From positions 1,823 through 65,822 of the forward strand of contig CACWXP010000027.1 of NCBI GenBank assembly GCA_902764875.1: DNA of 64,000 nucleotides. The letters are read 5' to 3'. Both the position numbers and the translations under genes were made by a program. This document shows positions 34,379 to 50,299 of this stretch, piece by piece. Each line of letters opens with the position of its first letter. The first letter of the stretch is position 1. Source of the DNA: an uncultured Eubacteriales bacterium. GTDB taxonomy: Bacteria > Bacillota > Clostridia > Christensenellales > Aristaeellaceae. Under the pieces are notes generated by a model that saw only the letters and a program-made list of their open reading frames with translations, was not told the DNA's origin and did not search any database.

Positions 34379-35335
34379 TCAGCATTCATGTCTGCGTTGA
34401 AGCCAGACTTGCCACGTTAGTGTGAACAGGAAGTATAATGCAGTTGCAATCACAAGGATAAAAAACAGTTCTCTTCCCATGAAGTAGCTTGTTGTTGCCG
34501 TTCCCTTTAGAAGAATGTGTGCGGCAATATACGCTATCGGGGCAAAAAAGACTTGCCGCATGATGATTCCGGCTTTCTTCCCGCGGAAAATAAACCATAG
34601 CAATACGGAAACGGCTGCCAGCGCAGCGGCAATCATCAAATAGTAAGCCAGGGCAAGGCGTGGCAACACTTCCGTTCCGCCGTTCAAGGGTTCCCCCCAC
34701 AGAAGTTCCTGTGAATTGCCACCGTCGTAAATCACCCGGCCAGGAACAGGATATAGAACAAGTTCACGTGCTGTGCCGCCCGTATTCATACTATAGGAAT
34801 CTCTTCCTATACCCTGAAGGACGACTGTTAATGTGTCGTCATCATCCCGGAACGATGTACACATGGTTCCGACAATGCTGCTGTCTGTATCAAAAACCAA
34901 CGCTTCTCCTGTGTATTTTTCAGGAACAATCTCTTCTGTATCGCGCTCATACAGGGTATGGTAGGTCCGTCCAAGCCGGTTCTCCGGTGAGACAATCTCT
35001 ACACCTTTGACCTTAATCAACCCTTCTTTCCATGGAAGCATATTCATTTTACTTGTATGATAAAAGCTAGTAAAAAGAATAATAAACACACAGAGAGCAG
35101 CAATGGCCACAGCTCTCCAGCGCCGCCGGCGGATCTGTTTCTTCAGATTCAAAAGGGGTTTCGCAGTTTCAATCGCCGGTTCTGCTTTTTCTTTCATAGC
35201 AGAGAGCTTTTCCCTGCAGTCAGAACAGTCTGCCAGATGTTCAGCCACCAGGTTTTCTGTTTCCGGCTCCACCATTTTTTCCGCATACAGCGGGAGCAAA
35301 TCCCTGATAACAGAGCATGGTATCTTCATGATCAT
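34379..35335 (-). CDS. Anti-sigma factor, zf-HC2 type, membrane-bound
   Basis: N-terminal CSVIRDLLPLYAEKMVEPETENLVAEHLADCSDCREKL (H-x3-C-x2-C) with TM segments. ATGA overlap with the upstream ECF sigma gene. Confidence 0.8.
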   Translation of the reverse strand: MIMKIPCSVIRDLLPLYAEKMVEPETENLVAEHLADCSDCREKLSAMKEKAEPAIETAKPLLNLKKQIRRRRWRAVAIAALCVFIILFTSFYHTSKMNMLPWKEGLIKVKGVEIVSPENRLGRTYHTLYERDTEEIVPEKYTGEALVFDTDSSIVGTMCTSFRDDDDTLTVVLQGIGRDSYSMNTGGTARELVLYPVPGRVIYDGGNSQELLWGEPLNGGTEVLPRLALAYYLMIAAALAAVSVLLWFIFRGKKAGIIMRQVFFAPIAYIAAHILLKGTATTSYFMGRELFFILVIATALYFLFTLTWQVWLQRRHEC

Positions 35336-35814
35336 CCCTCCATCTTTTCTTTGAGCTTTGCCCGGGCTCTGTGGTAAACAACACAGGCCCAGTTCTCTGA
35401 TTTGTCGAAGAGTTCGCCAATATCCCGGAAGCTGAGCTGGCCTAAAGTTCGTAAAGTGAATACTTCCCGATATGGTTCATCCAAGTGATGCAGGAGCCGA
35501 TGGATGCGCATGCTTTCATCCTGACGAATTATTCTTTCTTCCGGCCCCACAGAAGGATCGGCCAGAGAAGTTACTTCGTCAACTGGCTGAACATTTTTCT
35601 TCCTCTGCTCTAGTAGCCATTGATTTTTAGCTATGGCACAGAGCCAGCTCTTCAGATTGCTTTTACCCTGAAACCGATCCAGGGATTGCAGGGCTTTGAA
35701 AAATGTCTCCTGCGTGATCTCCTCAGCAACAACAGGGTTTTCAGAGAGTGAAAGCACATATCTGTATACCGGGTCAAAACAGTTTTGATAAATCTGATCA
35801 AAATCTTCCTGCAC
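35332..35814 (-). CDS. ECF-type sigma-70 family RNA polymerase sigma factor (pair 1)
   Basis: Region 2 (VYRYVLSLSENPVVAEEITQETFFKAL...LKSWLCAIAKNQ) and region 4 (REVFTLRTLGQLSFRDIGELFDKSENWACVVYHRARAKLKE). Confidence 0.9.
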   Translation of the reverse strand: MQEDFDQIYQNCFDPVYRYVLSLSENPVVAEEITQETFFKALQSLDRFQGKSNLKSWLCAIAKNQWLLEQRKKNVQPVDEVTSLADPSVGPEERIIRQDESMRIHRLLHHLDEPYREVFTLRTLGQLSFRDIGELFDKSENWACVVYHRARAKLKEKMEG

Positions 35815-35959: not shown

Positions 35960-36928
35960 TTATGATTTGCATTTCCACAATGCCATCGGATGCTCGATAA
36001 TTCGCTCTATAATGGACGGATCATCGAATAACAGTTCTGGTCGGTACTCTTTCTGACTGAATCGATTCATATATTCGATCTCTTCTTCAGTAGGAATCAT
36101 GAGCTTATGTATAAATTCTTTTGCGGCTTCTTTTCTGCCCTCCAGATCAAAAGTTTGCCTGCGTTCCTCCTGTTTCAGAACAGGGAACAGATCGCGACGG
36201 ATCTTCTGAAATGTTAGGTTATCAATGGAATCCGTTCCAAAAGATGAACTTATGATCTCCTGAGAGATGGAAGCATAGAAAATGATACTTTTCCGGATTA
36301 AATCGGTTTGTTCTGCAAACATGTTCCTGTCAATCATCTGATTGAAATCATATAAATCCCTTGCTGCCGATCGAGATAGAAGCGCGTTTGCCTTTGCTGC
36401 GAAAATCTCCATTGGATGAACTGTTATGACCGTTGAACCAGTGCCAAAGGCATCTGTTGCAAACGTTCTTGTCATCGGTTCAAACAGATGTGCCCTGAGT
36501 GAATAGTTTAACTCGATTTTGATCATATCCTGATTTCCCGCAGCGTTTGTATATGTAAAGTGAAACGCGTCGAGACTGTGGTGAATGCGCGATGCAGGAG
36601 AAAAAGCATATCCTTCTGATTCCATGTATGCCTTTATAGTCCCAGAAATAGTTTCTCGGGCCTGAAGCATATCTTCTCTCGGCAAATTCGGAACAAAGTC
36701 CATATCGATATCCACCGAAAGCCTGGGCAGTTCGAAAATGGTCAGGTTGATTGCCGTTCCGCCTTTCAAAAGAAGATGTGCCCTCAGGAATTCGTGTGCG
36801 TTCATCCAGTCGAGAATTGCTTTCAGTCGTAACACTTTTTCAAACGTATCTCTTGTGAAATGCTGATTCCGTGCTGCAATTTCCAGATCATTCCGATTAT
36901 ACTGCGGCATTGATTGAGTCCTCCCCAT
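35960..36928 (-). CDS. AbiEii/AbiGii-family nucleotidyltransferase toxin (type IV TA / abortive infection)
   Basis: LLKGGTAINL and SVDIDMDF nucleotidyltransferase motifs with DUF1814-like architecture. Overlaps the upstream AbiEi gene. The true start may be Met 36910. Confidence 0.85.
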   Translation of the reverse strand: MGRTQSMPQYNRNDLEIAARNQHFTRDTFEKVLRLKAILDWMNAHEFLRAHLLLKGGTAINLTIFELPRLSVDIDMDFVPNLPREDMLQARETISGTIKAYMESEGYAFSPASRIHHSLDAFHFTYTNAAGNQDMIKIELNYSLRAHLFEPMTRTFATDAFGTGSTVITVHPMEIFAAKANALLSRSAARDLYDFNQMIDRNMFAEQTDLIRKSIIFYASISQEIISSSFGTDSIDNLTFQKIRRDLFPVLKQEERRQTFDLEGRKEAAKEFIHKLMIPTEEEIEYMNRFSQKEYRPELLFDDPSIIERIIEHPMALWKCKS

Positions 36929-37667
36929 TCTTCATATACAGCAAATCCGAAGGAACTACCAGATTCCATTCACCGATGTAAACACCTTTCGTCATATCTG
37001 CAGTCAGGTACCGCTTGCTTTTCCCAATGTGTTCCCGGCAGGCAGAGAAGAAATGATCTGTTAGTCCCAGCGTATTCCGACAGCGCCATAGGAGATAACC
37101 AGATTTCTGATATAGAAACTGGTTCTTATACAACGATAGGTAATGTAGTATCTTGTTTTCACTGACATTGCTCAAACTGTCAATGATGGCAACTGTTTCT
37201 TCAATACCGCCGATCCTATCCATGTCCTTTATACAATCGGTCAGAGTGCGTTCTCGATCCGTAATCCTGATTCCTCCACTGAAGGCTGGCGTTTCAACAC
37301 CTTCATCCAGATTTGGCTTTACATAATGGTATGTGTATCCATCAAATTCAAAGTTCCGGAATTTGGTTTTTGAGGAAACGTATACATCATAGAACACCTG
37401 ATCGGACACACCGTAGTACTCCATCGCTGTATGGTGAGATATATAAGAAGTATCGCTTATTGCGCTTGCGATCTGGAAACGATTTGCCACAGGTCCCCCG
37501 TTTTCAGCGCTGATACAGGTATACAGATTACTCCGAATTTTCAGAACCTTGGAAGTTGCTATCATTCTTTTTACGGCTGAACGGGCACTGTTCATGTTGT
37601 TGTAAAAGAGATTAACATCTTCGATGGTAAACACGGGATGCTTTGCCATCTCAAAATATATGTCCAT
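36897..37667 (-). CDS. AbiEi-family antitoxin/transcriptional regulator
   Basis: N-terminal winged-helix-like region (FTIEDVNLFYNNMNSARSAVKRMIATSKVLKIRSNLY) and a C-terminal AbiEi_4-like domain. Gene order AbiEi then AbiEii. Confidence 0.85.
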   Translation of the reverse strand: MDIYFEMAKHPVFTIEDVNLFYNNMNSARSAVKRMIATSKVLKIRSNLYTCISAENGGPVANRFQIASAISDTSYISHHTAMEYYGVSDQVFYDVYVSSKTKFRNFEFDGYTYHYVKPNLDEGVETPAFSGGIRITDRERTLTDCIKDMDRIGGIEETVAIIDSLSNVSENKILHYLSLYKNQFLYQKSGYLLWRCRNTLGLTDHFFSACREHIGKSKRYLTADMTKGVYIGEWNLVVPSDLLYMKNGEDSINAAV

Positions 37668-37769: not shown

Positions 37770-38092
37770 GTTTGAATTGTGAGCAATATGGTCACAAAAT
37801 AAACTAAATTGAATCAATAATAAACAGCGCGCCTTAATGCCGTCAATTTATAAAGATCAGAAACCTCATTTCCGATGGAGATGTAAAGCTCAGGATCCTT
37901 TAATTCTTTTCTTCACAGCTCCTTTTTACCAATTGTAACAATTCCCCTGTCTGATAGGAATTTCCAGGTTGATGAAAGAAATATCTACCCAGTATCGTTG
38001 ATTATTTTGTAGGCGATACTCTCAGAAGCATATAATGAGATGCGGCAGGATTATTCATATGGCTCAGAGTGATATGTTGGAGGAATGGAACT

Positions 38093-39118
38093 GTGAAAAA
38101 AGCCATGTTGATCACTATTTTCGTTTTATCAATCCTGATCGGTATGATATGTGTTACAAATGCAGAAAACAATCAGCCTGAATTCCTGCAGAATCTGTTT
38201 CATGAATATTTTCCTGATTATTCCTATGAGGATGGTTATCTTCAGTATGATGAAACGGTGATATTCATCGGCCGGAAACCAGACGGCACCCTGATTTTGC
38301 AATGCGGTGCGTATGAGGGAGAAGATGGCTGGGAATGGGTGGAAAGTACCCCACTGCCGGAAGGAACCCGAATCGGAGATGAGAATATCACCGACGCGGT
38401 GAACATGAACGCCTGGAGGGGCGGAGCGGCAGTTGGCGTCCGAAGGATGGAAAGAGGCCGGTGGGGAGTATACTATGTGAACAGTTATGATTTCTATGTC
38501 GGTCCTGACTGGGTCGGTATGTACGGTGCTGAGACAGACGCGCAGTTTTTCGGAACCCATGCATGGGGAGATATCACAACAATCGACTGGTCGACGCTTC
38601 CCCCGGAAGAGTATATTGACAGAGAAACAAAAGAAGAAAGAAACGCGCGGATCAGCGCATATGTAGACCGAACCAATTGGGCAACGCCCGCGCACAGCGA
38701 TCCTGAAACAACAACGGAACTACTGAGTGAAGCGGGAAACGAGGATACAGTTCTCGGAAGATTCTATGACGGAACGCCTCTGTTTATTCTCGAACAGGGA
38801 GAAGAATGGACAAAGGTAAAAATCGGTCATGGAGAAGATATCGGTGTGATGACCGGCTGGATGCGGACTCAGGATTTGATCTTCGGGGACGATACTCTGC
38901 ATGTGGAGCGGGAAGCAATTCGGATCAGAAGCGAGCAGGTACTGATTCCCGCGGCGGAGACATTTATCGGTTCCCGGGCCGGTCAGATAACGGATGAACA
39001 GTTCAACAGTTGCTTGGTTATCGGAGAAACAGATCAAGGGCTTGTAATTGCATATTATCTGCCAGATGGAGATGTCGGTATGATACCGATGTCAAGTCTT
39101 GGAAATGGGAATGGATAG
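38093..39118 (+). CDS. Secreted protein with SH3b-like domain, C-terminal ...LGNGNG
   Basis: GTG 38093 lies 7 nt after GGAGGAA. Signal peptide KKAMLITIFVLSILIGMICVTNA. SH3b-like stretch GRFYDGTPLFILEQGEEWTKVKIGHGEDIGVMTGWMRTQDL. Ends in GNG. Confidence 0.6.
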   Translation: MKKAMLITIFVLSILIGMICVTNAENNQPEFLQNLFHEYFPDYSYEDGYLQYDETVIFIGRKPDGTLILQCGAYEGEDGWEWVESTPLPEGTRIGDENITDAVNMNAWRGGAAVGVRRMERGRWGVYYVNSYDFYVGPDWVGMYGAETDAQFFGTHAWGDITTIDWSTLPPEEYIDRETKEERNARISAYVDRTNWATPAHSDPETTTELLSEAGNEDTVLGRFYDGTPLFILEQGEEWTKVKIGHGEDIGVMTGWMRTQDLIFGDDTLHVEREAIRIRSEQVLIPAAETFIGSRAGQITDEQFNSCLVIGETDQGLVIAYYLPDGDVGMIPMSSLGNGNG

Positions 39119-39183
39119 GCTGACTTATGGCTCTATGGAGTTTTGAACTCTGCAGAGCCTTTTTATTTTGCTTCAGAAAACAA

Positions 39184-39235
39184 TTGACAAAAAAAGTAGA
39201 CGTGCGTATACTAACCAATGTAGACGTACGTCAAC
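39184..39235 (+). promoter_or_regulatory. blaI/blaR1 promoter with two dyad operator-like repeats
   Basis: TTGACA (39184-39189), 17 nt, TATACT (39207-39212). GTAGACGTGCGTATAC (39196-39211, overlapping the -10) and GTAGACGTACGTCAAC (39220-39235) are both imperfect palindromes of form GTAnACGnnCGTnnAC. Confidence 0.6.
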
Positions 39236-39258
39236 TAATTTCGCTGGAGGGATGACTA

Positions 39259-39627
39259 ATGTCTGTACAAGTAACGGAAGCTGAATGGAAGATCATGGAA
39301 TGTCTGTGGGATCATGCTCCTCAGACCATGGGAGAGATCACGGCAACATTGGAACCGACAACTGGCTGGACTCGCCAGACAGTTATTACTTTGCTGAAGA
39401 GAATGACTGAAAAAGGCGCAGTCAGCATGGACGATTCCGGACGGGCCAAGAAGTACGTTCCCCTGATTACCAGAGAGGAAGCTTCCACCGTGGAAACCCA
39501 TAAATTCCTGGATCATGTCTTTAAAGGAAAGGCATCCCTGCTGGTTAACCATCTGGTGGATTCCGGCGATCTTTCTGCGAATGATCTTCAGCAAATCCTG
39601 GATATCATGCGCGGAGAGAAAAAGTAA
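39259..39627 (+). CDS. BlaI/MecI/CopY-family transcriptional repressor
   Basis: 122 aa. EAEWKIMECLWDHAPQTMGEITATL...WTRQTVITLLKRMTEKGAV is typical of the penicillinase-repressor winged helix. Confidence 0.9.
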   Translation: MSVQVTEAEWKIMECLWDHAPQTMGEITATLEPTTGWTRQTVITLLKRMTEKGAVSMDDSGRAKKYVPLITREEASTVETHKFLDHVFKGKASLLVNHLVDSGDLSANDLQQILDIMRGEKK

Positions 39628-39686
39628 TCCGAGACGTAAGAAAAACATCTCCTGAATCGTCTGTTTTATGGGAGGTTTGTTAAGCT

Positions 39687-41348
39687 ATGCGTTCAGCATT
39701 GATTTATAATTTTCTGATCGAAGCCAATATCATGGCTTCCATCGCGATTCTGCTGATGATTCCGCTCCGAAAATTATTTCGGAAACAACTAGGAAATAGT
39801 GCCATCTGCTTTGGATGGCTCCTTGTTGCGATCCGGCTGCTATGCCCGCTGTCTTTGCCGAATCCGTTTATCCGAGAGATCCGTCCAGCTTTTCTGAGTG
39901 ATGAAACGATCCGGCCGATCGCTGGGCAGATCAAGGTACGCCTCGTTGACGCGATAGGCGATGTGGGGAGGCTATTCTGGCAGGCAGGAAACAAAGAAGG
40001 ATACAGCCGGATGCAGGCGGCTGCAGACGGTGTGGACTATAACGGCTATCCGCAGACCATTGCCTGGATTATCCTGATTGGCGCTGCGTGCGTTCTGCTC
40101 TGGTTCGGCTTCAGTAACATCCGTTTCCGGAAAAAGCTTCGGGCAGGCAGAATTGAAGAAATATCAGGTGGACTGAAGGAAATGTATCTCAACATATGCA
40201 AGGAGCGGAAGGTCAGACCGGTTCCGGTTTACTTCACGGATCCTGTTCCCGGCGCCTGTCTGGTAGGCGTTTTCCGTCCGTTTATCGTCCTGCCAGTAAT
40301 TACAGCCCCGGAGGATGTCAAAAATGTGTTGACACATGAAATCTGCCATCTGAAAAACAGGGATCATATCTGGAACATTCTGCGGATGCTTTGCTGCGCA
40401 ATTCACTGGTTTAATCCGCTTGTCTGGCTGGCAGCATCTATGAGCAGGACAGACAGCGAACTGCGTTGCGATGACCGTGTGACAGAGGCAATGGACGAAC
40501 AGGAACGAAAAGACTATGCCAATGTACTTGTGTATGCAGCGGCACGAAAAAGCATGCCCGGTATCGGTGTGATGGCGACCGGGATGACGATGACCGGGAA
40601 ACGACTGAAAAACCGGGTGTTGGGAGTTATACAGAACAGGAAACCTATCCGTGCCTTTGCCTTTGTGTTCATGGCTGTTGCCTTTACATGCCTTGTAGGC
40701 GCTTTCGCAACTTCCGAAACCGGACTGACCTGGCTGACCAGTTTTCCGAATAACTACGAAGCCAACGACTGGACGCTTGATCAGGAAATGCTGCAATATT
40801 ACGCGGAAGACCGAGAAGCGCTGGATTCTTTCGGGGTCGGTGTATGGGAAAGCGCAAGCCTGAAAGAAAACAGTTCTCATACCCCATTTTCATTGAAAAG
40901 CAATGACGAAGGCACTGAATGGATCATGACAGACAGCGGTGGAGAACTGATTCTGGTATATGATGGCCAGGGAACGCTGATCAGCCTGCTGAACAATAAA
41001 AGCGGTGTGGACGACAGTACCATCATACCGCTGACGGCTCTGGACACACCAATGGAAAAAATGACTGAATTGTATCCGGACCAGATCGATGAGATCGTCG
41101 GAGAATATGTATCCCATTTTCTCTACAGTTTCCGACCGGACCTGATTTCTGGGAGTAATTATGTGCAGCTGCTCGAACAGTGGAAACACGGAAGTAATTG
41201 GTTTGCTGTATTTGCGCTTCGCCGGACGGTTATGGATGTGCATGAGGACCAGTATCTGGCTATGATTGAGCTGCAGATGTATCCGGAAATCAGGGTCGTG
41301 AGAATGACTACTGTGCAGGATCAGATGAAGAATCCAGGCAATGGATAA
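39687..41348 (+). CDS. BlaR1/MecR1-like M56 metalloprotease signal transducer with non-PBP sensor domain
   Basis: N-terminal TM bundle with HEICHLKNRDH (HEXXH). The C-terminal 220 aa lack any SxxK penicillin-binding motif and end ...QMKNPGNG. Confidence 0.85.
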   Translation: MRSALIYNFLIEANIMASIAILLMIPLRKLFRKQLGNSAICFGWLLVAIRLLCPLSLPNPFIREIRPAFLSDETIRPIAGQIKVRLVDAIGDVGRLFWQAGNKEGYSRMQAAADGVDYNGYPQTIAWIILIGAACVLLWFGFSNIRFRKKLRAGRIEEISGGLKEMYLNICKERKVRPVPVYFTDPVPGACLVGVFRPFIVLPVITAPEDVKNVLTHEICHLKNRDHIWNILRMLCCAIHWFNPLVWLAASMSRTDSELRCDDRVTEAMDEQERKDYANVLVYAAARKSMPGIGVMATGMTMTGKRLKNRVLGVIQNRKPIRAFAFVFMAVAFTCLVGAFATSETGLTWLTSFPNNYEANDWTLDQEMLQYYAEDREALDSFGVGVWESASLKENSSHTPFSLKSNDEGTEWIMTDSGGELILVYDGQGTLISLLNNKSGVDDSTIIPLTALDTPMEKMTELYPDQIDEIVGEYVSHFLYSFRPDLISGSNYVQLLEQWKHGSNWFAVFALRRTVMDVHEDQYLAMIELQMYPEIRVVRMTTVQDQMKNPGNG

Positions 41349-41507
41349 ATATGAGGAGGATTACTCATGAATCGCGGCCCTTGTCGGCTGATTGACATAT
41401 TCGGAGATTTCGGCGAAGCATCCCAGGAGGATTTCACATGAAGCTATGATGCCCTTCTGCCAGGGGCTGGATGATCCGGCTTATACAATAACAATCGGAG
41501 ATGAGCA

Positions 41508-42110
41508 TTGAAAATGAAAAAACAGTATTTGATGATCCTTATTGTGCTTCTGGCTATTCTGTTAAGCTCAGTGGCTGCAGCAGACAATTTCTTTACAATG
41601 CACTGGGAACCAGGAGAATACAAAGTAACATTTTCGCCAGAAGAAGACAAACTGGTCGATGGAATTCTGGAGGAAGCTCGAAAAAAATCTGAGGGTACAA
41701 TCCAGCGTAAAGCTATAGATGGCTCCGAAAGCGTGGAAAATCAATATCAACGTTTCCTTGAAATGAGTCCGGACGGAGAACCAATGGAGAGTGTGACCCA
41801 CGACGATATCGGCACATATTATTATGCTGTTGGCTTGCCTGATAAACAATCCATTACAAAGGATGAAGCATGGAAAATTCTGGTGAAATTCCTCCTTGAT
41901 CAGGAGATTGCAAAGCCAGACATTCTCGCTCATTATTATCCGCAGGTTTCCTATGAAACAGGAAACGATCCGGAAAATCCTGTCTGGAGAATCCTGCTGA
42001 TCTGTTATGACTATCAGGAATCCGGACTACCCTTTACGAAATATGAAGTATTCGTATATGCGCATGACGGAAGCATCTGTGGGTATCGTGATATCGACCC
42101 GGTTGGCTAA
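41508..42110 (+). CDS. Secreted hypothetical protein, PepSY-like C-terminus (...YRDIDPVG)
   Basis: Signal peptide KKQYLMILIVLLAILLSSVAAA. C-terminal ITKDEAWKILVKFLL...YEVFVYAHDGSICGYRDIDPVG resembles PepSY-type folds. TTG 41508 or ATG 41514. Confidence 0.5.
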   Translation: MKMKKQYLMILIVLLAILLSSVAAADNFFTMHWEPGEYKVTFSPEEDKLVDGILEEARKKSEGTIQRKAIDGSESVENQYQRFLEMSPDGEPMESVTHDDIGTYYYAVGLPDKQSITKDEAWKILVKFLLDQEIAKPDILAHYYPQVSYETGNDPENPVWRILLICYDYQESGLPFTKYEVFVYAHDGSICGYRDIDPVG

Positions 42111-42130
42111 GAGAAACGGAGGGAATCAAC

Positions 42131-42976
42131 ATGAGAATAAAAACCTGCATCGTTGTTCTTTTGACAGCACTTCTTGTTATGTCTGCGTCCTCAGCAGAGG
42201 AATTAACCGTATCCGGCAGAGTGAATGCCGTTATGTACGCAGACAAGGCCCTGGAGGAGCATTTTGGTATTACTCTGCTTTTGCAGGACTACTTTCTCCG
42301 GACGGTGGAAGAGAAGGAGGATAACGTTTTTATTGTCAGATATGAAGGCATAGAAAACTATGCGTATGTATTGGGACGATATGAAGTCACTGTAGACAGA
42401 AATCATGTGACAGGTATTACATGGAGCCATGACGGTGAAGATACTTCCGGAGGCTTTGAAGCAGAAGCCTGGGGTGCGGAACAGATCATGGAAATGCTGC
42501 GCCTGAATCAGGAAGCAGGAACAACGGAACCATTCGATGCCAGAATTAACGAGATCGGCAGGAAGCACGGCTTTGTCTATGTACCGAATATCCTTAGTGA
42601 CGAAGAAAACGAAAGAAAAATGGCCCGAATTGAAAAAAACCGCGAAAAAGCACGAAACCTCTCATCCCTGTCTATTGAAGAAATGACGGAGATTGGCCGG
42701 CGTGCAGTCGCGTCACTTTACGGGTTATCACCGGAGAGAGAACGGGCTCTTGAATCTGTTGTTGATGAAGAGGAGTTGCCCCTTTGGTATACGATATTTG
42801 AAGGTGAACCTTGTTATCAGGTATGCCTCGGACTTGACGACAAGGAAGAAGATGATGTTCTTCCCAACGGATTAAGATATACAGAAAAAGAAGGAAACTA
42901 CTGGATTTATATCAACTCTCAGACTGGCGTAGTTGAGGATATACATTACAGCCCCGCTATCGGTGGGAACGGTTGA
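42131..42976 (+). CDS. Secreted hypothetical protein, PepSY-like C-terminus (...AIGGNG)
   Basis: Signal peptide MRIKTCIVVLLTALLVMSASSA. C-terminus YWIYINSQTGVVEDIHYSPAIGGNG. Confidence 0.5.
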   Translation: MRIKTCIVVLLTALLVMSASSAEELTVSGRVNAVMYADKALEEHFGITLLLQDYFLRTVEEKEDNVFIVRYEGIENYAYVLGRYEVTVDRNHVTGITWSHDGEDTSGGFEAEAWGAEQIMEMLRLNQEAGTTEPFDARINEIGRKHGFVYVPNILSDEENERKMARIEKNREKARNLSSLSIEEMTEIGRRAVASLYGLSPERERALESVVDEEELPLWYTIFEGEPCYQVCLGLDDKEEDDVLPNGLRYTEKEGNYWIYINSQTGVVEDIHYSPAIGGNG

Positions 42977-43019
42977 CAAACCGAAAGAAAATGAAAGGAG
43001 CCGGTTTTCCCGGAATAAC

Positions 43020-44465
43020 ATGAAAAAGATCATTGCTTCAATATTGTTGATTGTGATGGCTTTATGCCTGACTTTGACAGCCTTTGCAGACAGCTCGCTT
43101 CGTTTATTTTATGATTCGGCAATGGAACTGCTGTTTGAGACGCAAAACGTCACATTGACCGGACATGCTGAGTTTTCGCTTGATGGAGAACGTTTCAAAA
43201 CGGCTGATCTTAAATATATTCAGTGTTACAACAATTCCCTGCTTCAGTATCATCTGCTGACGCCGAGACGGGACGGCTCAGAAGGCCCAGACCGGGAATC
43301 AGGGTATACCATTATCGCCAATACTGAAAATGTCTATGTTATGGAAGTGATCCATCCCGGCATATACAAAACCGGGAGCACCTATGCCCAGAGTACGATT
43401 CTGAGAAAAACAGTACAGATGAATCTGATTACCGATATGATCAGGATTCTTATTGATCAGGCTGATACTCTTCTGGGGACAGATGCCATTACAATTCAAC
43501 CCTGCGAAACAGGTGGAAAAGAACTCCGGATTAAACTTGGTGAAAATGTCCCGGACATCGTAAATACAGCATTGAATCTGGTTTATCAGTTTGCTGCAAA
43601 AAGATACTTTGACACGGATTATGATCAGGTTTCAGAACGGATGATGGTTCCGATGGAAAACGCCATGACTGTTATGCAGGGGATTCTCGGAAATACAAAG
43701 TCCTTATCTCTGAAAGAAGCAAACGTTTCAGCAATAAGGAGTGATGCGGGAAACCTGGAGCAAATCAAAGGAACTGTCACTTTGAATCTGAATACCGGAA
43801 AGGATGGAACAAGGCAGTTGGATATAACATTCCAACTGGATGTATCCGATCTGGATGGAAGCCATGTGGGTTCATTTGATCCGGAAGCATATGCTGTCAA
43901 ACTGTCCGATGGCTATTCCCGACCAGAGACTGTTATAAGTACCATGGATCCGGATACGGAAAAGAGATTTCTGGAGATGGCAAAGACAAGATTCTGGCTT
44001 GCCGGTTATACGGTGGATGAAACGATGGTTGGATCCGCCAGAATTGAAAGTAATAATCCAAACTATGAAGGCGAACGAATCTATGTTGATTATATAAATG
44101 AGGATCATTCTGCACACTGGACATATTTTACTGATTCACTGGGAAGAATGCTTGGCCTGCAAAACTTGACCGGTGCATGGCAGGGTAACTATGATGACCG
44201 GCATAAAGGACAGTATCCGGATCAGAAACTGATAAAGGAGTCAGAAGAAAAGCTGCTCAGTTATCTGGCAGAAGAAAACCCGGAATTAAGCGCGGATGTT
44301 CTTTCACTGGAAACGGACTGGTGGTATCAGAATGGCGATGAGCTGTATCTCCATTTCTGGGAAGGCGAAGAACCTGTAGATCACGAATGGGATGAGGTGG
44401 ATTTCATCGTTCGTGTTGCTCCTGAATGGAGAATTGAATTCTTCAGTTGTATTGGAAATGGATAA
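43020..44465 (+). CDS. Secreted hypothetical protein (...FFSCIGNG)
   Basis: Signal peptide MKKIIASILLIVMALCLTLTAFA at ATG 43020 (the track start 42933 overlaps the previous gene). Ends in GNG. Confidence 0.5.
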   Translation: MKKIIASILLIVMALCLTLTAFADSSLRLFYDSAMELLFETQNVTLTGHAEFSLDGERFKTADLKYIQCYNNSLLQYHLLTPRRDGSEGPDRESGYTIIANTENVYVMEVIHPGIYKTGSTYAQSTILRKTVQMNLITDMIRILIDQADTLLGTDAITIQPCETGGKELRIKLGENVPDIVNTALNLVYQFAAKRYFDTDYDQVSERMMVPMENAMTVMQGILGNTKSLSLKEANVSAIRSDAGNLEQIKGTVTLNLNTGKDGTRQLDITFQLDVSDLDGSHVGSFDPEAYAVKLSDGYSRPETVISTMDPDTEKRFLEMAKTRFWLAGYTVDETMVGSARIESNNPNYEGERIYVDYINEDHSAHWTYFTDSLGRMLGLQNLTGAWQGNYDDRHKGQYPDQKLIKESEEKLLSYLAEENPELSADVLSLETDWWYQNGDELYLHFWEGEEPVDHEWDEVDFIVRVAPEWRIEFFSCIGNG

Positions 44466-44606
44466 TTGTTTCGGAGGACTTACCTCTCCTTTTCCGGCTG
44501 TGATAACCATGGCCGGAACGTTTTTATGGATCTGCAAAAAGATAGCTTTGAAATGAAATATTTCTTTCCGCTCGTCAGTCTGTATTAGCGAAGGGGGTGA
44601 GAACAC

Positions 44607-45125
44607 ATGAGCAATGTCAAGGGCCCTGACGAAGCTCAAAACCCAAATTTTGAAGATCTAGTAGCGCAGTATCAGGGATCTGTATTGCGGATGTGTTTCC
44701 TCTACCTGTGCGACAAGACACTGGCTGAGGACGCTGTGCAGGAAACGTTTGTGAAGGTATACAGGGGATTGAATGGTTTTCATGGTCAGAGCAGCATTAA
44801 GACCTGGATCATGAAAATTGCCATTCATACCTGCTACGATATGAATCATTCCGGATGGTTCCGGCATTTTGACCGCCGGATCACACCGGAGATGCTGCCT
44901 GAAGCGTCAGTTCCGTTTGAGGAAAAAGACGAAGAACTGATCACAGCCGTCATGCGGCTCCCGATCAAACTGCGCGAAGTGATTCTGCTGTTTTACTATC
45001 AGGGATTCAGCATACAGGAAATCATGGATTCGCTGGGCATGTCCCAGTCAACCGTCACGGGACGGTTGAAACGGGGAAGAGACAAACTTCGCGGACTACT
45101 GGAAAGGAGGGATTCCGATGCGTGA
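44607..45125 (+). CDS. ECF-type sigma-70 family sigma factor (pair 2)
   Basis: Region 2 (VLRMCFLYLCDKTLAEDAVQETFVKVY...IKTWIMKIAIHTCYD) and region 4 (REVILLFYYQGFSIQEIMDSLGMSQSTVTGRLKRGRDKL). Paralogous to the sigma at 49796-50299 (shared GWFRHxDRRITPExLPE). Confidence 0.9.
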   Translation: MSNVKGPDEAQNPNFEDLVAQYQGSVLRMCFLYLCDKTLAEDAVQETFVKVYRGLNGFHGQSSIKTWIMKIAIHTCYDMNHSGWFRHFDRRITPEMLPEASVPFEEKDEELITAVMRLPIKLREVILLFYYQGFSIQEIMDSLGMSQSTVTGRLKRGRDKLRGLLERRDSDA

Positions 45126-46368
45126 AGTTGAAGAAAGAGCGATCTTCCAGAACGCTGTGGATCGACGTCTTTCCGGTCTGCAGGAGAATCCTTTCCTGGC
45201 TCAGCGAATCATGAGCGCTGAAAAGGGAGAAATCAAAGTGAAAAAGAAACTGACGCTGAGCATGGCTTTGGTAATTGTGCTGTTGCTTATCGCGGTAACG
45301 GCGCTCGCCGTTGCGCTGCTGTCGCCCAAAGAGATTGTGGAACAGGTAGCCGTGCCGATTGCGCAGAGCAATGACCAGGAGAATTATACCTATGAAGAAC
45401 TGGCGGATTTGATCCGAACACTGAACGAAAACGGGATTACGCTGGACGAAGGTTCTAAGATTGTGCAGGCTTTTCAAGCAGGACACGGCTACTGGGAAGG
45501 AGATACCATAAAGGAAATTTGCCGTGCAGCATTTGGTGAGGATTCATGGACACCGGAACAGAGTTACTGGTATGGAGAAATGATGGTTGCTGTCGGTGCT
45601 TGGGAACATAATGCCTATATACTGCCGAAAGAAGATGAATTGCAGGAAGAACAGGCACGAATCCTTGCTGTGCAGATTCTGAATAATACTTATCATGTGA
45701 ACTTGCCATCAGAAAGTAACGAATCTTGGACAGTCACAGCTGCTCTTGGATTCCTTTGTGATGAGGATTCAGTAACAGGTATACCGTCGTGGTTTATTAA
45801 CTTCATTCCAAATTCCGATGATGATGAACTGCAAGGCTACACTGTAACCTTCGACTTGCATGGAGAGAACGCGCAACCGGATCATCTTGTAGTAATAAAC
45901 AAAAAACCGGATGAGACCACCGTAGAAAAGTATAATGAAATACAGGCTGATTTTGAAAAGGAAAAACAGGTAGTATCTGAATATGGTGAAGTAATGCACT
46001 TCTGGCCGGATGAAGTTAAAGTAGAAGTATATGGTGGACTATATGGCTTACCCTATGCAATACCGGAACCGGAAGAATATGCTGTTGCACTGGAAGATGC
46101 GAAAAGATTTATCGCCGAAAAATATGGGGCAGACGCATTGGAAAAATTGGGCGACTATAAGGTTGGATATCTCTTCCAGAAGTTGGATGATGAAGAAGAT
46201 ATTGAAACAAAAGCGACGCAGCTAATGTGGGATATTATGTTCACAACAGATCCGAAATTCCTGTCAGACGGCTACAGGGTACAATTCCAGAGAGTCATTG
46301 ACCATGAGACCGGCGAGGAGAACATTGTTGATGTGATTGTTGAACATGCTCATTTGGGAAGCGGGTAA
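45118..46368 (+). CDS. Single-pass membrane protein, probable cognate anti-sigma factor (...HAHLGSG)
   Basis: 8-nt overlap with the sigma gene. Cytoplasmic N-terminus, then TM LTLSMALVIVLLLIAVTALAVALL, then a large extracytoplasmic domain. Same architecture as 48799-49803. Confidence 0.6.
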   Translation: MREVEERAIFQNAVDRRLSGLQENPFLAQRIMSAEKGEIKVKKKLTLSMALVIVLLLIAVTALAVALLSPKEIVEQVAVPIAQSNDQENYTYEELADLIRTLNENGITLDEGSKIVQAFQAGHGYWEGDTIKEICRAAFGEDSWTPEQSYWYGEMMVAVGAWEHNAYILPKEDELQEEQARILAVQILNNTYHVNLPSESNESWTVTAALGFLCDEDSVTGIPSWFINFIPNSDDDELQGYTVTFDLHGENAQPDHLVVINKKPDETTVEKYNEIQADFEKEKQVVSEYGEVMHFWPDEVKVEVYGGLYGLPYAIPEPEEYAVALEDAKRFIAEKYGADALEKLGDYKVGYLFQKLDDEEDIETKATQLMWDIMFTTDPKFLSDGYRVQFQRVIDHETGEENIVDVIVEHAHLGSG

Positions 46369-46419
46369 GACAACAGGTATACATTGTGAAAGAAATATTC
46401 GTCTTGTATCGTCTATATT

Positions 46420-46878
46420 ATGGGAGGTGTGATTTTGAAAAGATTGTTGCTGCTTCTCACTACGCTCATTATGATCCTTTCTGCGTCAATTGTCTTTGCG
46501 GAGGAAGATTCGGATGCGGTAATCAATGAATGGGAAGAAAAATATGGCGATCAGCGGCTGTGGGATTACCAGGTAAATGCTGCATTTGCTGAGCAGGAAT
46601 CCTGGCGATATGCCTGGAACCCATCGATGCGTCCTATGCTGCCTGATCAGGATGCTATCTCTGCCGAAGAGGCAGAAAATCTGGCAATTCAGTTTATTCC
46701 GCAGTACGGTAGTGAGATTAATGCCGAAAGATTGGAATCCCTGACCTGCGTTGTTTCCAGCTATCGTAAGCCGGAAAATGACACCGGTTCCTATTGGTCG
46801 ACAAACGGAACCTGGGTAATTGACTTCTGGGAAGAATTCCCAGTGCTTTATTGCTTCCGTCTGGAGCACATTATGTAG
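46420..46878 (+). CDS. Secreted hypothetical protein (possibly frameshifted at 3' end)
   Basis: Signal peptide LKRLLLLLTTLIMILSASIVFA. PepSY-like DQDAISAEEAENLAIQFIPQYG. An alternative frame after about 46840 continues to 46922 (...GAHYVGAPDNAKVVTGTEG*). Confidence 0.4.
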   Translation: MGGVILKRLLLLLTTLIMILSASIVFAEEDSDAVINEWEEKYGDQRLWDYQVNAAFAEQESWRYAWNPSMRPMLPDQDAISAEEAENLAIQFIPQYGSEINAERLESLTCVVSSYRKPENDTGSYWSTNGTWVIDFWEEFPVLYCFRLEHIM

Positions 46879-46950
46879 GTGCCCCGGACAATGCGAAAGT
46901 GGTTACCGGTACAGAAGGTTAAGGAGCTTCTGGAATCGGTTGACCATCTG

Positions 46951-46985: not shown

Positions 46986-47046
46986 CTTTTTGTTGAGCTC
47001 TGTAACGTTTTTTGATCTATTGAAACTAACTGTATGGAAGGAGGTG

Positions 47047-47541
47047 ATGAAGGTGCTGGACCCTGAAGCTGTATATCAGCAATACAGAGATATGGTATAC
47101 GGATACCTTTTCAAGCTGTGCCAGAATCATGATCTTGCGGAAGAGCTCACGCAGGAGACATTCTTTCAGGCGCTGAAACGTTGGAACAAATTTCAGGGGA
47201 AAAGCGATATCGGAACCTGGCTATGTTCTATCGCCAGAAATCAGTATTATCTGCTTTTCAGGAAATCCAAGGAAGAGCCTGTTGCGATCATAGATCAGGA
47301 ACCGGAGCCGGATTTTTCAGAAACGATCATTCATCGCGGCTTAGAAATAGACGCATATAAGGCCCTTCATCATTTGCCAGAGCCATACAGGGAAGTCTTT
47401 ACACTTCGAATCTTCAGCGATCTGAATTACCGTGAGATTGCTGAAGTCTTCGGGAAATCAGAGAGCTGGGCACGGGTGACCTGTTACAGAGCAAAGCGCA
47501 TGCTTCAGGATGCATTGAAAGGAGCAAACAGCCATGAATAA
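47047..47541 (+). CDS. ECF-type sigma-70 family sigma factor (pair 3)
   Basis: Region 2 (VYGYLFKLCQNHDLAEELTQETFFQAL...IGTWLCSIARNQ) and region 4 (REVFTLRIFSDLNYREIAEVFGKSESWARVTCYRAKRML). Start is ATG 47047 or GTG 47053 after GGAGG. Confidence 0.9.
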   Translation: MKVLDPEAVYQQYRDMVYGYLFKLCQNHDLAEELTQETFFQALKRWNKFQGKSDIGTWLCSIARNQYYLLFRKSKEEPVAIIDQEPEPDFSETIIHRGLEIDAYKALHHLPEPYREVFTLRIFSDLNYREIAEVFGKSESWARVTCYRAKRMLQDALKGANSHE

Positions 47542-48472
47542 AGAATGTGGTATTGTCCGGGATCTTATGCCACTCGTCATTGATGATGTTGCCGGTATCG
47601 AGAGCAAGGAATATGTAGAAAACCACCTGACCGGATGTGAGGAATGCAAAAAGATATATCAGGAAATGAACGCAGAGATCCCTGGAAAGACGGAGAAAGA
47701 AAAAGGTAATGAACAAAAAGCATTCTCAGCTGCCGCAGGAAAGCTGAAAAAGAAACGCCGTTTTCGCACGTTGAAACATGTTCTTCTCGGGATCTTGATT
47801 GCCAGTATTGTCTTTGGAGCCGGTCTCTTTGGATACGGAAAACTGGCTCAGGTCAGGGAACACGTTTACTACGGCTTCTATAAAGTCTATCTGTCTGAAC
47901 TGGACAATAACAAAGTGGTTTTCACTATGGATTACAGGGGCAGCTATGACGATCTAAGTACAATGGTAAAGGAAGTCAGCGAAACTGATCCTAAGACAGG
48001 AGAAAAAAAGCTGATCATGTATGTTTATCTGGAAAAGTACAGGATTCCGAGGAAAATGCAGGAACCCAATCAGAATCAGTACTTCCAGGTTTTGACAGCT
48101 GAGAATATGGCAGAATACAGCGAAATACGTCTGGGTGTTCCTGAAGAGTATCAGACGATCTGGGTTCAGGGACAGCAGATTACAAAGGCGTCTGTACAAA
48201 TGAACGAGTATTTCTTCTGGTCTGATATTGAAGAAAAAATGTGGGATTTTACCCGCGAGAGTACAGATGGAAAGGTCGCTTTTACTGATTTCAGGATAAG
48301 TAGCATTGAATTGATTGTTCATAATCAGATGTACGCTATCGCCTGCACTGTTCCGGAATGGCAGCCTTGGGTATCAGGACGGCAGATTGAACTGGCCGAT
48401 CAGGAAACCATCCTCTGGGCGCTTTCAGGTCTGAGAGAAGCTGGGATTCAGATTGATAAACCGAATCCGTAA
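47534..48472 (+). CDS. Anti-sigma factor, zf-HC2 type, membrane-bound
   Basis: CGIVRDLMPLVIDDVAGIESKEYVENHLTGCEECKKIY (H-x3-C-x2-C) and TM LGILIASIVFGAGLFGY. 8-nt overlap with its sigma gene. Confidence 0.8.
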   Translation: MNKECGIVRDLMPLVIDDVAGIESKEYVENHLTGCEECKKIYQEMNAEIPGKTEKEKGNEQKAFSAAAGKLKKKRRFRTLKHVLLGILIASIVFGAGLFGYGKLAQVREHVYYGFYKVYLSELDNNKVVFTMDYRGSYDDLSTMVKEVSETDPKTGEKKLIMYVYLEKYRIPRKMQEPNQNQYFQVLTAENMAEYSEIRLGVPEEYQTIWVQGQQITKASVQMNEYFFWSDIEEKMWDFTRESTDGKVAFTDFRISSIELIVHNQMYAIACTVPEWQPWVSGRQIELADQETILWALSGLREAGIQIDKPNP

Positions 48473-48798: not shown

Positions 48799-49803
48799 TC
48801 AATCCGGGGTAAACATTTTCTGTAAAGTCTCAATGTCCAGACAAGGTGAGGAAACATCAATGTTCTCCCAGGTGGATACTGTAGGTTCAATTGATACGGG
48901 CAGGTCGGCATACATGGGGTCCATGATGCATTCAATGGGATGGCTCAGGCGTCTCCGCATGGCAAGACTGTTAATTGCCGGATCATTGGAATCAACAATT
49001 GCAAGTGCATCATCGATACCCGGGACAGTAATCACAGAGGCGCTCTGCCCATCAATCAAATCAAAAGTTCGTTCATCAGCTTCTGGATCATCGATCAGCA
49101 TTGAACTTACAAGAACATAATGCTTATTATCTCCGGATTCTTTGAAGCTGATGAAATACCATACAACCACAGAATCGGAATCGTCAATTTTATACCGTTT
49201 CAGTGTAATCGCGCCTTCCTGACGTTCTTCGACCAGCTTGTATTCCCCGTCTGCTTTGCAGGAAATCGATACCTTGGCCTCCTGAAACTCGTATCCATCC
49301 GGAATCCAGGTGGGCAGTGTCAGTTCGGACGAATGAACCATATACTCCCGGAATTCATCCCATGAGTTGAATGTTTTTTGTATTGGTCTGGCTCCGCCCA
49401 TTGTACCTCCAGCTGTTTCATAGGAAACCACCCCATATTCATCTTCAGCGACAGAATTTTGCAGAAGTTCATCTGCCATCCGGCTGAGGTCTTCATCGCT
49501 CAATATCTGTGCATCCAGTGGCGGCACTACTGTAGCTTCGGGCCCAATCGGCACTTCGGTTTCCTCAACCGTTTCGCCTTTCCAGTTAATGCTGATTCGA
49601 TGATATACTTCCGTTGCGGCATATGCGACTGCTGCAAGCACAAGCAGAAGCGCAATAACGCCTATAAAGCTAATTGACAGTTTCTTTTTCATAACGGTGC
49701 CTCCCTGATTCACCTGCTGTCGAACAGCTTTGCTGTTCCGGACAGACCAGGTAATATTTGAAAGTTCGGCATCCAATCGACTTTTCAGATCATTTTCATC
49801 CAT
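48799..49803 (-). CDS. Single-pass membrane protein, probable cognate anti-sigma factor
   Basis: Start ATG 49803 (MDENDLKSRLDAELS...) overlaps the sigma stop by 8 nt. TM ISFIGVIALLLVLAAVAYA, then an extracytoplasmic domain. Same architecture as 45118-46368. Confidence 0.6.
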   Translation of the reverse strand: MDENDLKSRLDAELSNITWSVRNSKAVRQQVNQGGTVMKKKLSISFIGVIALLLVLAAVAYAATEVYHRISINWKGETVEETEVPIGPEATVVPPLDAQILSDEDLSRMADELLQNSVAEDEYGVVSYETAGGTMGGARPIQKTFNSWDEFREYMVHSSELTLPTWIPDGYEFQEAKVSISCKADGEYKLVEERQEGAITLKRYKIDDSDSVVVWYFISFKESGDNKHYVLVSSMLIDDPEADERTFDLIDGQSASVITVPGIDDALAIVDSNDPAINSLAMRRRLSHPIECIMDPMYADLPVSIEPTVSTWENIDVSSPCLDIETLQKMFTPD

Positions 49804-50299
49804 CGTAATACCACCCTTCCAGTTTCTTTCGAAGAAGCTGGTTTGCCTTTCGAATCTGTCGTTTGGCGGTTGCAACAGAGACACCGGCTGTTTCTGCGGT
49901 TTCCTGAACGGTGAATCCTTCATAATATCGAAGAAGGATTACCATCCGCAGTTTGGCAGGCAGGGAGCTGATTGCTCCGGAGACTTCACCGTCCGGGAAG
50001 TGAACTTCCTGCGCTTTTTCCGGAAGGTTTTCAGGAGTAATTCGTCGGTCCATATGCCGAAACCATCCCGTACGCTGATAATCACGGCACGTATTTACGG
50101 CAATTCGTATCAGCCACGTTTTTTTACTGCTTTCATTTCTGAATGTATCCAGTGCTTTCCAGGCCTTGATAAAGGTGTCCTGTGCGGCATCTTCCGCCTG
50201 GAAAGGATCCTTAAGCTGCAGCGTACAAAAACGCATGATTTCATCGCCGTAGTGATTCATGAGGTACTCCAGTTCTTCCTGATGTTCGGTGTCCGTCAT
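49796..50299 (-). CDS. ECF-type sigma-70 family sigma factor (pair 4)
   Basis: Region 2 (IMRFCTLQLKDPFQAEDAAQDTFIKAW...KKTWLIRIAVNTCRD) and region 4 (RMVILLRYYEGFTVQETAETAGVSVATAKRQIRKANQLL). Confidence 0.9.
   Translation of the reverse strand: MTDTEHQEELEYLMNHYGDEIMRFCTLQLKDPFQAEDAAQDTFIKAWKALDTFRNESSKKTWLIRIAVNTCRDYQRTGWFRHMDRRITPENLPEKAQEVHFPDGEVSGAISSLPAKLRMVILLRYYEGFTVQETAETAGVSVATAKRQIRKANQLLRKKLEGWYYDG

Follow-up and report, generated by a model that had tools for sequence, protein, structure and literature searches.

Why should several secreted proteins, a BlaR1-type sensor protease and a membrane anti-sigma factor, encoded close together in one genome, finish with nearly the same three residues? 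The question is raised by a gene cluster in a 64,000-nucleotide stretch (hereafter the window, whose first letter is position 1) of contig CACWXP010000027.1 from an uncultured Eubacteriales bacterium. The cluster contains a BlaI-type repressor gene, a gene for a BlaR1-like protease, a gene pair for an extracytoplasmic function (ECF) sigma factor and its anti-sigma factor, and genes for secreted proteins that we call g1, g4, g5, g6 and g9 (Table 1). Here, we describe a glycine-rich tail of the form G-x-G that stands at the extreme C-terminus of extracytoplasmic polypeptides, is selected at the protein level and persists between protein modules that have no other detectable similarity. We discuss how such a tail could act, and which alternative explanations survive.

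Of all open reading frames (ORFs) in the 64-kb window, counting both strands and a minimum length of 40 aa, only five terminate in G-[NS]-G, and each of them belongs to the cluster. Amino-acid composition predicts 0.035 such endings in 59 genes (Poisson P(≥5) ~4e-10). A preliminary description of this DNA had reported a common tail in six consecutive genes, with Gly-Asn-Gly as its fixed form. All six of the reported C-termini are present in the sequence, and the tail proper is carried by five of them; g4, which ends PVG, has only the terminal Gly in common with the others and is not evidence by itself. The genes are not consecutive, because they are interrupted by blaI and the ECF sigma gene, whose cytoplasmic products lack the tail. 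Nor is the Asn invariant. In 557 genes of related loci the commonest C-terminal tripeptide is GNG, and the motif extends further and is less strict than G-N-G, with a hydrophobic residue ahead of G-(G)-x-G-COOH, in which x is N more often than Q, Q more often than E or S, and occasionally I, L or C. The same loci carry the tail on BlaR1 proteins, on proteins with an SH3_3 (SH3b) domain and on large anti-sigma factors.

The proposal that the tail marks extracytoplasmic proteins was upheld. A G-x-G C-terminus was found in 33 of 208 proteins with an N-terminal hydrophobic segment, a count inflated because the loci were fetched via g5 homologues, compared to 3 of 349 proteins without such a segment. 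Three more ECF sigma/anti-sigma pairs flank the cluster (34379-35814 on the minus strand, 46990-48472 on the plus strand and 48799-50299 on the minus strand). Two of these include zf-HC2 anti-sigma factors, and none of the three anti-sigma factors bears a G-x-G tail, suggesting that the tail follows the type of ectodomain and is not a general property of anti-sigma factors.

Absence of the tail from orthologues was the outcome that the preliminary description had named as counting against it; the tail is instead strongly conserved among relatives of g5, of the anti-sigma factor and of the BlaR1 sensor. The g5 family is small, with 146 detectable relatives among 5.8 billion proteins, and those with labels come from metagenome-assembled genomes (MAGs) of rumen or ruminant-gut Clostridia. 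Of the 120 relatives listed among the 146 detected, 103 end in GNG, at identities down to 35%; the others are mostly fragments. Among 28 species-level genomes (28-48% identity), 27 have Gly as the final residue and 26 have Gly at -3, and position -2 is occupied by N (13 genomes), Q (8), E (3), I (2), L (1) or C (1). The tail is kept much better than the protein as a whole: a 63-sequence alignment has a mean column identity of 48%, yet G279 never varies and both N280 and G281 reach at least 90% conservation. All 14 metagenomic relatives of the anti-sigma factor that share its terminal module end in G-x-G (39-70% identity), 13 of them in GNG with the pattern A-N-phi-G-N-G, where phi is a hydrophobic residue. 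For the BlaR1 sensor, an exhaustive HMMER profile search of 1.84 billion representatives yielded seven matches, one of them a spurious repeat protein; the relatives with an intact C-terminus all end in G-[NQ]-G, at 21-87% identity, the most diverged sensors being only 21-34% identical. That search found no anti-sigma or genuinely free secreted version of the sensor. Other queries were less informative: the sensor alone retrieved six fragments only, and full-length BlaR1 retrieved only near-identical proteins (at least 88% identity) that are useless for alignment.

The codons of the tail point in the same direction. Gly and Asn codons differ between the five genes of the window, so no shared DNA element explains the tails. 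Across the 28 species-level genomes the g5 tail codons are varied and synonymous, and the tail persists beside unrelated downstream genes. Selection on the tail acts at the level of the protein. Within the g5 family, the best-conserved stretch is a different one, W-S-H-D-G-E-D-T-S-G-G (aa 98-108, nt 42422-42454), which directly follows the last strand of the N-terminal module. In this stretch W98, D101 and G108 are invariant and G102, E103, T105, S106 and G107 reach at least 90% conservation; the stretch might form a loop that binds a metal or ligand.

Do the tail-bearing proteins share anything besides the tail? The preliminary description had assumed one extracytoplasmic module, homologous across all six proteins and used as a free secreted protein, as the sensor of BlaR1 and as the sensor of the anti-sigma factor. 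Homology of this breadth is not detectable. Pairwise BLASTP of all cluster proteins revealed no similarity between the tail-bearing C-termini. Hidden Markov models (HMMs) of the N- and C-modules of g5, when compared with every ORF of the window plus three loci, recovered g5 homologues only, and hhalign showed no relation between the BlaR1 sensor family and the g5 family. When nine module alignments were compared all against all with hhalign, the reversed-sequence controls never fell below P 0.014 in 72 non-self comparisons, and five weak, mutually consistent links emerged. The g5 N-module was linked to the g5 C-module (P 5e-4), the g5 C-module to the C-modules of two anti-sigma families (P ~1e-3 each), and the g5 N-module to one anti-sigma C-module (P 2e-3). 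The fifth link, between the BlaR1 sensor and the last ~120 aa of g6, was recovered by two separate hhalign runs (P 3e-3 with 116-117 colinear columns; E 2e-3 over 117 columns). The proteins g1, g4 and g9 could be placed in neither group.

We conclude from these profile comparisons that there are at least two module lineages, one PepSY-like and comprising g5 and the anti-sigma C-termini, the other, unplaced, comprising the BlaR1 sensor and the g6 C-terminus. Each lineage is represented in both a membrane sensor and a secreted protein, with the G-x-G tail as the sole feature common to all. By hhalign with reversed-sequence controls, the tail is the only similarity left between lineages without detectable homology. 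The idea of reuse holds for g5, whose module does serve in two forms, one freely secreted and the other part of an anti-sigma factor, as its ectodomain. Most related genomes encode the g5 homologue immediately behind an ECF sigma gene, as an anti-sigma factor of 316-330 aa, whereas the version of the window and of a few other genomes starts with a signal peptide. PepSY modules with and without anti-sigma or transmembrane (TM) parts were already noted in Firmicutes in a published study (PMC10556640), and module reuse itself is therefore not new.

The designation of the secreted proteins as PepSY-like likewise applies to only some of them. No match for the modules was found in Pfam or NCBIfam with full proteins or isolated terminal modules, even at E ≤ 10, and this includes PepSY (PF03413), which no window protein or terminal module matches at that threshold; the g5-family profile matched no PDB sequence. 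Related anti-sigma factors do match Pfam PepSY (34.2 bits, 3.2e-8, in locus L014; 31 bits, 3.2e-7, in L011; cut-off 24). Compared with these validated PepSY segments, the g5 C-module gave an hhalign P of 4.9e-5 (probability 68%, 62 columns; reversed control 0.45), and homology to the PepSY segments was found for this module only. The match of g4 was not significant (P 0.025), and g4 is possibly one PepSY-like module; the BlaR1 sensor, the g6 C-terminus and the g1 C-terminus gave no hhalign signal. An AlphaFold2 (AF2) model of g5, with a mean predicted local distance difference test (pLDDT) score of 90.7, consists of two helix + 4-strand modules. Its top Foldseek matches in the PDB are PepSY proteins, namely YpeB 5boi (E 8e-3), the vibriolysin propeptide (3nqz, 3nqy), FoxB and YpmB, all weak, with none reaching E ≤ 1e-3. 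The model of the BlaR1 sensor (pLDDT 73) is alpha+beta with helices packed on antiparallel strands, and weakly resembles PsbP, DcrB and NTF2-like folds; none of these matches is significant and none is PepSY. SEAL and RsgI structures are absent among the top Foldseek matches of both models. In both, the tail lies 3-12 residues past the last strand, and low confidence for the last 1-3 residues predicts that the end of the tail is flexible.

The signalling proteins to which the tails are attached are of familiar kinds. The BlaR1-like protein matches PF05569 (6e-43) over aa 9-311 and has no Pfam match past aa 311, nor any match to a transpeptidase or beta-lactamase. It scores 95.6 bits against a cut-off of 400 for the NCBIfam model blaR1_generic, aligning to model positions 2-331 of 585 only. 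Because it has no penicillin-binding domain, it does not qualify as a beta-lactam receptor by its sensor, and its domain content argues that it works like BlaR1 yet is not a beta-lactam sensor. As in the BlaR1/MecR1-BlaI/MecI systems, an M56 domain with an HExxH motif is combined with an adjacent Penicillinase_R repressor and paired promoter dyads, and by homology the C-terminal domain lies outside the cell after the last TM segment (PMC3356374). The window system differs from these in that its sensor is neither penicillin-binding nor class-D-like, its downstream genes encode secreted alpha+beta proteins instead of a beta-lactamase or penicillin-binding protein, and an extra ECF-type promoter precedes blaR1. 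The sigma factor (Sigma70_r2 5e-13, r4_2 2.2e-12; TIGR02937 85.8 bits, cut-off 42.9) has regions 2 and 4 only and adjoins a membrane anti-sigma factor with one hydrophobic segment at ~aa 45-68, as expected of an ECF sigma/anti-sigma pair. Their genes share an overlap of 8 nt. No Pfam model matches the N-terminus of the anti-sigma factor; a paralogue in locus L007 matches DUF4179 at 23 bits, below the cut-off of 30.1.

Both signalling routes may be joined by transcription as well. The sigma-70-like promoter of blaI is overlapped at its -10 element by the first of two dyads, and the second dyad lies just downstream. Dyads of the GTAGAC..GT..AC type flank the blaI/blaR1 promoters of locus L013 and the distant L045, and L007 has two dyads at positions equivalent to the window pair. 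Promoter and paired dyads form the usual layout of BlaI-type autorepression, and we regard the dyads as putative operators. A second motif, GAAAWAY-N10-TCGTC (22 nt), occurs exactly ahead of blaR1 (39640), the sigma gene (44555) and g9 (46392), each time in an intergenic region, on the plus strand and 25-30 nt before the start codon. A one-mismatch site (37978), 94 nt ahead of the g1 start, has flanks resembling those of the g9 site (GAAAGAAATAT). With one mismatch allowed, six sites were observed in the window compared to 1.3 expected, and no shuffle reached six; a repeat finder also paired the blaR1 and g9 sites. ECF-type sites are conserved ahead of the orthologous genes, namely the blaR1 site in L013, the sigma site in L013 and L017, and the g9 site in L017, and paralogous sigma genes have CGTC elements of their own. 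If these motifs are functional, the sigma factor would drive its own gene, the anti-sigma gene, blaR1 with g4-g6, g9 and g1, which is essentially every tail-bearing gene. Contigs from rumen and ruminant-gut metatranscriptomes cover the cluster, and one of 4.7 kb spans blaR1 through g6.

One interpretation of these findings, which we prefer tentatively and with somewhat less than even confidence, is that the proteins dock through their free G-x-G end onto a partner or into a pocket of an ectodomain, and that the secreted paralogues compete with or assist the sensors. On this reading the cluster is a variable envelope-signalling cassette of an uncultured rumen Clostridia bacterium, and it combines a BlaI/BlaR1-type derepression switch with an ECF sigma/anti-sigma pair. 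Both sensor ectodomains are small alpha+beta modules, none of them penicillin-binding, and the genes apparently controlled by these circuits mostly encode secreted paralogues of those ectodomains (g1, g4, g5, g6, g9). The hydrophobic residue and G-(G)-x-G with its free carboxylate would together make a docking element that needs a free C-terminus, and the receiving pocket could belong to an extracellular partner common to all or to the ectodomains. Soluble competition (as decoys) or a co-receptor role might then let the secreted paralogues feed back on both sensors. The motif with its conservation and its extracytoplasmic restriction, the module lineages and the promoter and operator motifs are observed; the docking, the partner and the decoy feedback are what we infer.

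Several observations weigh against a docking element. No conserved neighbour able to read the tail was found in the related loci; only ECF sigma genes recur beside g5-type genes, and no protease or binding-protein gene co-occurs with them. The tail is absent from some PepSY-type anti-sigma relatives whose last module differs, and it is thus not obligatory for signalling in the superfamily. The distant BlaR1 of L045 bears the tail, and the next gene encodes a secreted protein without it. The ECF-type pattern was derived from its three exact sites, leaving only the g1 site and the orthologous loci as independent support, and the metatranscriptome contigs could include contaminating DNA. Low pLDDT is common at protein termini and is weak evidence of a flexible tail. 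Finally, all tail-bearing modules have a similar helix + 4-strand layout, and g5 has an analogous Gly-rich stretch (SHDGEDTSGG) behind its internal module, so the tail could be an inherited structural feature of one very divergent domain.

This last point leads to a structural explanation, the main rival, which we consider possible if somewhat doubtful: the proteins would share one fast-evolving PepSY-like alpha+beta domain, the tail would be its least changeable part, perhaps by ending the chain after the last strand, and no trans-acting factor would read it. In its favour, the g5 N- and C-modules and the anti-sigma C-modules are weakly related, and no conserved partner gene was found. Both AF2 models are helix + 4-strand with the tail 3-12 residues past the last strand, most families have a hydrophobic residue ahead of the glycines, and the Gly-rich segment after the internal g5 module is comparable and nearly invariant. 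However, extreme C-termini are usually the least constrained parts of proteins, and here the tail outlasts all other detectable similarity. Its last residues are predicted to be flexible, PepSY-type relatives that have another terminal module manage without it, and the BlaR1 sensor retrieves no PepSY folds.

Alternatively, the secreted proteins could inhibit an extracellular metalloprotease, with the free G-x-G carboxylate lying product-like in its active site, and the sensors could detect the same protease. We think this improbable. PepSY domains have an inhibitory role in the propeptides of thermolysin-like proteases (PMC3356374; PMC10556640). The propeptide of vibriolysin is among the Foldseek matches of g5, and the inhibitor would need a free C-terminus, as is seen. 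Like the PepSY domain of thermolysin-family (M4) propeptides, the window modules are small, extracellular and alpha+beta; unlike it, they have no attached or linked protease and no Pfam PepSY match. The island around the cluster contains no gene for an M4 or other secreted protease, none is conserved in related loci, and the BlaR1-sensor/g6 lineage is not detectably PepSY. The proposal also leans on the premise that a propeptide C-terminus would occupy the active site.

Asn-Gly is the most succinimide-prone dipeptide, which favours explanations by chemistry or processing at this site, such as succinimide formation or deamidation, an isopeptide bond, or sortase- or asparaginyl-ligase-like cleavage or transpeptidation after Asn. 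The anti-sigma and BlaR1 families do strongly prefer Asn, and Asn-dependent autoproteolysis is described (PMC10556640) in the SEAL (SEA-like autoproteolytic) domains of Firmicutes anti-sigma factors, which are marked by a SEA-like fold and a conserved Asn-Pro scissile beta-hairpin. Position -2 is nevertheless Q, E, S, I, L or C in many g5-family orthologues and S in the anti-sigma factor of the window, and no transpeptidase or ligase gene is linked. Given this variation at position -2, we reject Asn-specific chemistry as a general explanation and consider it highly improbable overall. Chance, composition or a constraint at the DNA level, such as a regulatory element shared by the 3' ends of genes, has nothing in its favour beyond the shortness of the motif and is effectively refuted by the Poisson probability and by retention of the tail beside unrelated downstream genes, its DNA-level form being rejected because the Gly and Asn codons vary among genes and orthologues.

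Returning to docking, a stronger form of the proposal would make phi-G-(G)-x-G-COOH a previously unrecognised extracytoplasmic recognition tag in rumen Clostridia, with the secreted proteins competing with the sensors for its reader and so exerting decoy feedback on two routes. We regard this stronger form as rather unlikely. Candidate readers would be a site-1 or tail-specific protease, the accompanying SH3b-domain proteins or the cell wall itself. Since SH3b domains bind peptides or cell wall, secreted SH3b proteins are candidate readers of the glycine tail. Secreted SH3_3 proteins recur in clusters of sigma, anti-sigma and BlaR1 genes (L007 287-2050, 7640-9328 and 12211-13908; L012 12274-14565), and two of those in L007 have another fixed C-terminus, ..IPGLDWAE or ..IPGLNWAE. 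In the window, g1 has a weak SH3_3 match (aa 219-268 of a 349-aa ORF), and its 587-aa relative in L007 combines a true SH3_3 match with the C-terminus WEGNG. The g1 tail may conceivably stand behind a second SH3b-like domain, in which case the tail would be portable between folds.

The tail can be compared with known extracytoplasmic C-terminal signals. Outer-membrane protein tails of the Y-x-F type activate DegS, and tail-specific proteases with PDZ domains (Prc/Ctp) read free C-termini. The likeness is one of analogy only, the shared idea being that a protein which triggers or adjusts anti-sigma proteolysis recognises a free extracytoplasmic C-terminus; the tails of those systems are aromatic or hydrophobic whereas the window tails are glycine-rich, and no gene for a PDZ protease is linked. 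Sorting signals (LPXTG/sortase, PEP-CTERM, GlyGly-CTERM) consist of a motif, then a TM helix, then a basic cluster. They too are conserved C-terminal motifs on otherwise unrelated secreted proteins of one lineage, but the window motif is the very end of a soluble domain, without TM helix or basic tail. Window proteins match no NCBIfam sorting-domain model, and no sortase-like gene is linked.

Among the closest known signalling systems are the PepSY anti-sigma factors and stand-alone PepSY proteins of Firmicutes, including SEAL-PepSY fusions (Brogan et al. 2023, PMC10556640). In that paper, PepSY-type ectodomains are likewise found on single-pass anti-sigma factors and also without an anti-sigma domain or TM segment; the parts of it that were searched mention no conserved C-terminal G-x-G tail, and the partner of its SEAL-PepSY anti-sigma factors is SigI, whereas the window partner is an ECF sigma factor. 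The same paper describes the SigI/RsgI arrays of cellulolytic clostridia, which resemble the window in having neighbouring sigma/anti-sigma pairs, diversified ectodomains and plant-fibre habitats. The window differs from these arrays in using ECF sigma factors and PepSY-like modules instead of SigI and carbohydrate-binding modules. The signalling hardware of the cluster, M56 BlaR1/BlaI and ECF sigma/anti-sigma, is known, and the tail itself fits no known sorting signal or DegS-type tail. In agreement with the preliminary description, Pfam, NCBIfam and the literature searched hold no family or sorting signal matching the tail. Literature on PepSY with BlaR1, anti-sigma or ECF factors, on C-terminal tripeptides and on PepSY propeptide C-termini does not describe the motif, and an ECF classification paper mentions neither PepSY nor BlaR.

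Table 1. Genes and regulatory features of the cluster, in window coordinates.
Feature	Position	Strand	Description
ECF-type promoter-like site, g1	37978..37999	+	GAAATATCTACCCAGTATCGTT; one mismatch, CGTT instead of CGTC
g1	38093..39118	+	secreted, 341 aa, signal peptide; C-terminus ..SSLGNGNG
Sigma-70-like promoter, blaI operon	39184..39212	+	TTGACA-17-TATACT
Putative BlaI operators	39196..39235	+	two 16-bp imperfect dyads, GTAGACGTGCGTATAC (39196-39211) and GTAGACGTACGTCAAC (39220-39235)
blaI	39259..39627	+	Penicillinase_R winged-helix repressor, PF03965 8.9e-31; cytoplasmic, no tail
ECF-type promoter-like site, blaI/blaR1 gap	39640..39661	+	GAAAAACATCTCCTGAATCGTC
blaR1-like gene	39687..41348	+	M56 signal-transducing metalloprotease; HEICH at aa 217-221; C-terminus KNPGNG
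BlaR1 extracytoplasmic sensor	~aa 345-553, nt 40719-41348	+	not a penicillin-binding domain
g4	41508..42110	+	secreted, 200 aa, signal peptide; C-terminus ..DIDPVG
g5	42131..42976	+	secreted, 281 aa, signal peptide, two PepSY-like modules; C-terminus AIGGNG
g6	43020..44465	+	true start 43020; secreted, 481 aa, signal peptide; C-terminus SCIGNG
Intrinsic-terminator-like hairpin, 3' of g6	44492..44518	+	sequence feature
ECF-type promoter-like site, sigma gene	44555..44576	+	GAAATATTTCTTTCCGCTCGTC
ECF sigma factor gene	44607..45125	+	172 aa; cytoplasmic, no tail
Anti-sigma factor gene	45118..46368	+	single-pass, 416 aa; ectodomain end ..VEHAHLGSG
ECF-type promoter-like site, g9	46392..46413	+	GAAATATTCGTCTTGTATCGTC
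g9	46435..46922	+	secreted; broken in the window by a 55-bp deletion at 46832/46833

The last gene of the cluster adds a seventh secreted member to the tail-bearing set. The intact allele of g9 (L001, L017) encodes 180 aa ending in VVTGTEG; relative to L001, the missing 55 bp cause a frameshift in the window that leaves a 152-aa ORF ending in ..RLEHIM, which may be a strain-level pseudogene or an assembly variant. The anti-sigma factor varies as well. At 416 aa it is ~155 aa shorter than orthologues of 567-571 aa (L017 5969-7672, L013 12822-14537), with one internal ectodomain module missing and both ends, including the tail module, kept; the 416-aa and ~570-aa forms are both present in metagenomes. 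Directly 3' of the blaR1 stop is a 24-codon ORF (41367-41441, MNRGPCRLIDIFGDFGEASQEDFT) with a strong AGGAGGA ribosome-binding site. The block from this site to the ATG is duplicated at 41425-41442, where the second copy opens a 3-codon ORF only. The 24-codon ORF could encode a small peptide or be a leader element ahead of g4.

The cluster sits in an island (~34-52 kb) of lower guanine-plus-cytosine content, 0.41-0.48 compared to 0.53-0.59 in the upstream flank. At the left edge of the island (35960-37667, minus strand) are an AbiEii-type nucleotidyltransferase toxin gene (PF08843 in L001) and, overlapping it upstream, a 256-aa gene, presumably for an AbiEi-like antitoxin. The window is 99.9% identical to the rumen scaffold L001 and 98.8% identical to part of MAG RUG13884 ("uncultured Clostridiales"), its closest genome. 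Strains diverge at 39114-39117, at 44530-44550 and at ~46408, as seen in loose ends of RNA and DNA contigs and in the RUG13884 contig. Between g6 and the sigma gene RUG13884 carries a 5.8-kb insert (L013 6418-12251) with two extra sigma/anti-sigma pairs, and one of these anti-sigma factors has 953 aa and ends in ELSGNG. Judged by these breakpoints, the locus behaves like a series of interchangeable cassettes that are joined at gene ends or promoters. Immediately ahead of its junction with the blaI region, RUG13884 has a short ORF (L013 ~700-1000) with an ECF-sigma-like start and the end ..SLDEGNG, which looks like a recombination remnant that kept the 3' end of another tail-bearing gene. The window BlaR1 was found at ~100% identity on 127 contigs (NCBI, JGI, ENA, Logan), with more than 100 further variants of at least 97% identity, suggesting that the organism or the island is very common in ruminant-gut metagenomes.

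Ligand and mechanism are mostly unsettled for the ectodomains of ECF anti-sigma factors and for BlaR1 homologues that do not sense beta-lactams. A short, free C-terminal motif that is common to sensors and to the secreted proteins they apparently control offers a concrete experimental handle on both. If the tail serves as a tag for docking or degradation, it would be a new class among the few known extracytoplasmic C-terminal signals, and anti-sigma proteolysis and BlaR1-type repressor cleavage would read one cue. If it is a structural cap only, the locus would still define an unannotated, rumen-restricted set of families together with a compact sigma/BlaI regulon.

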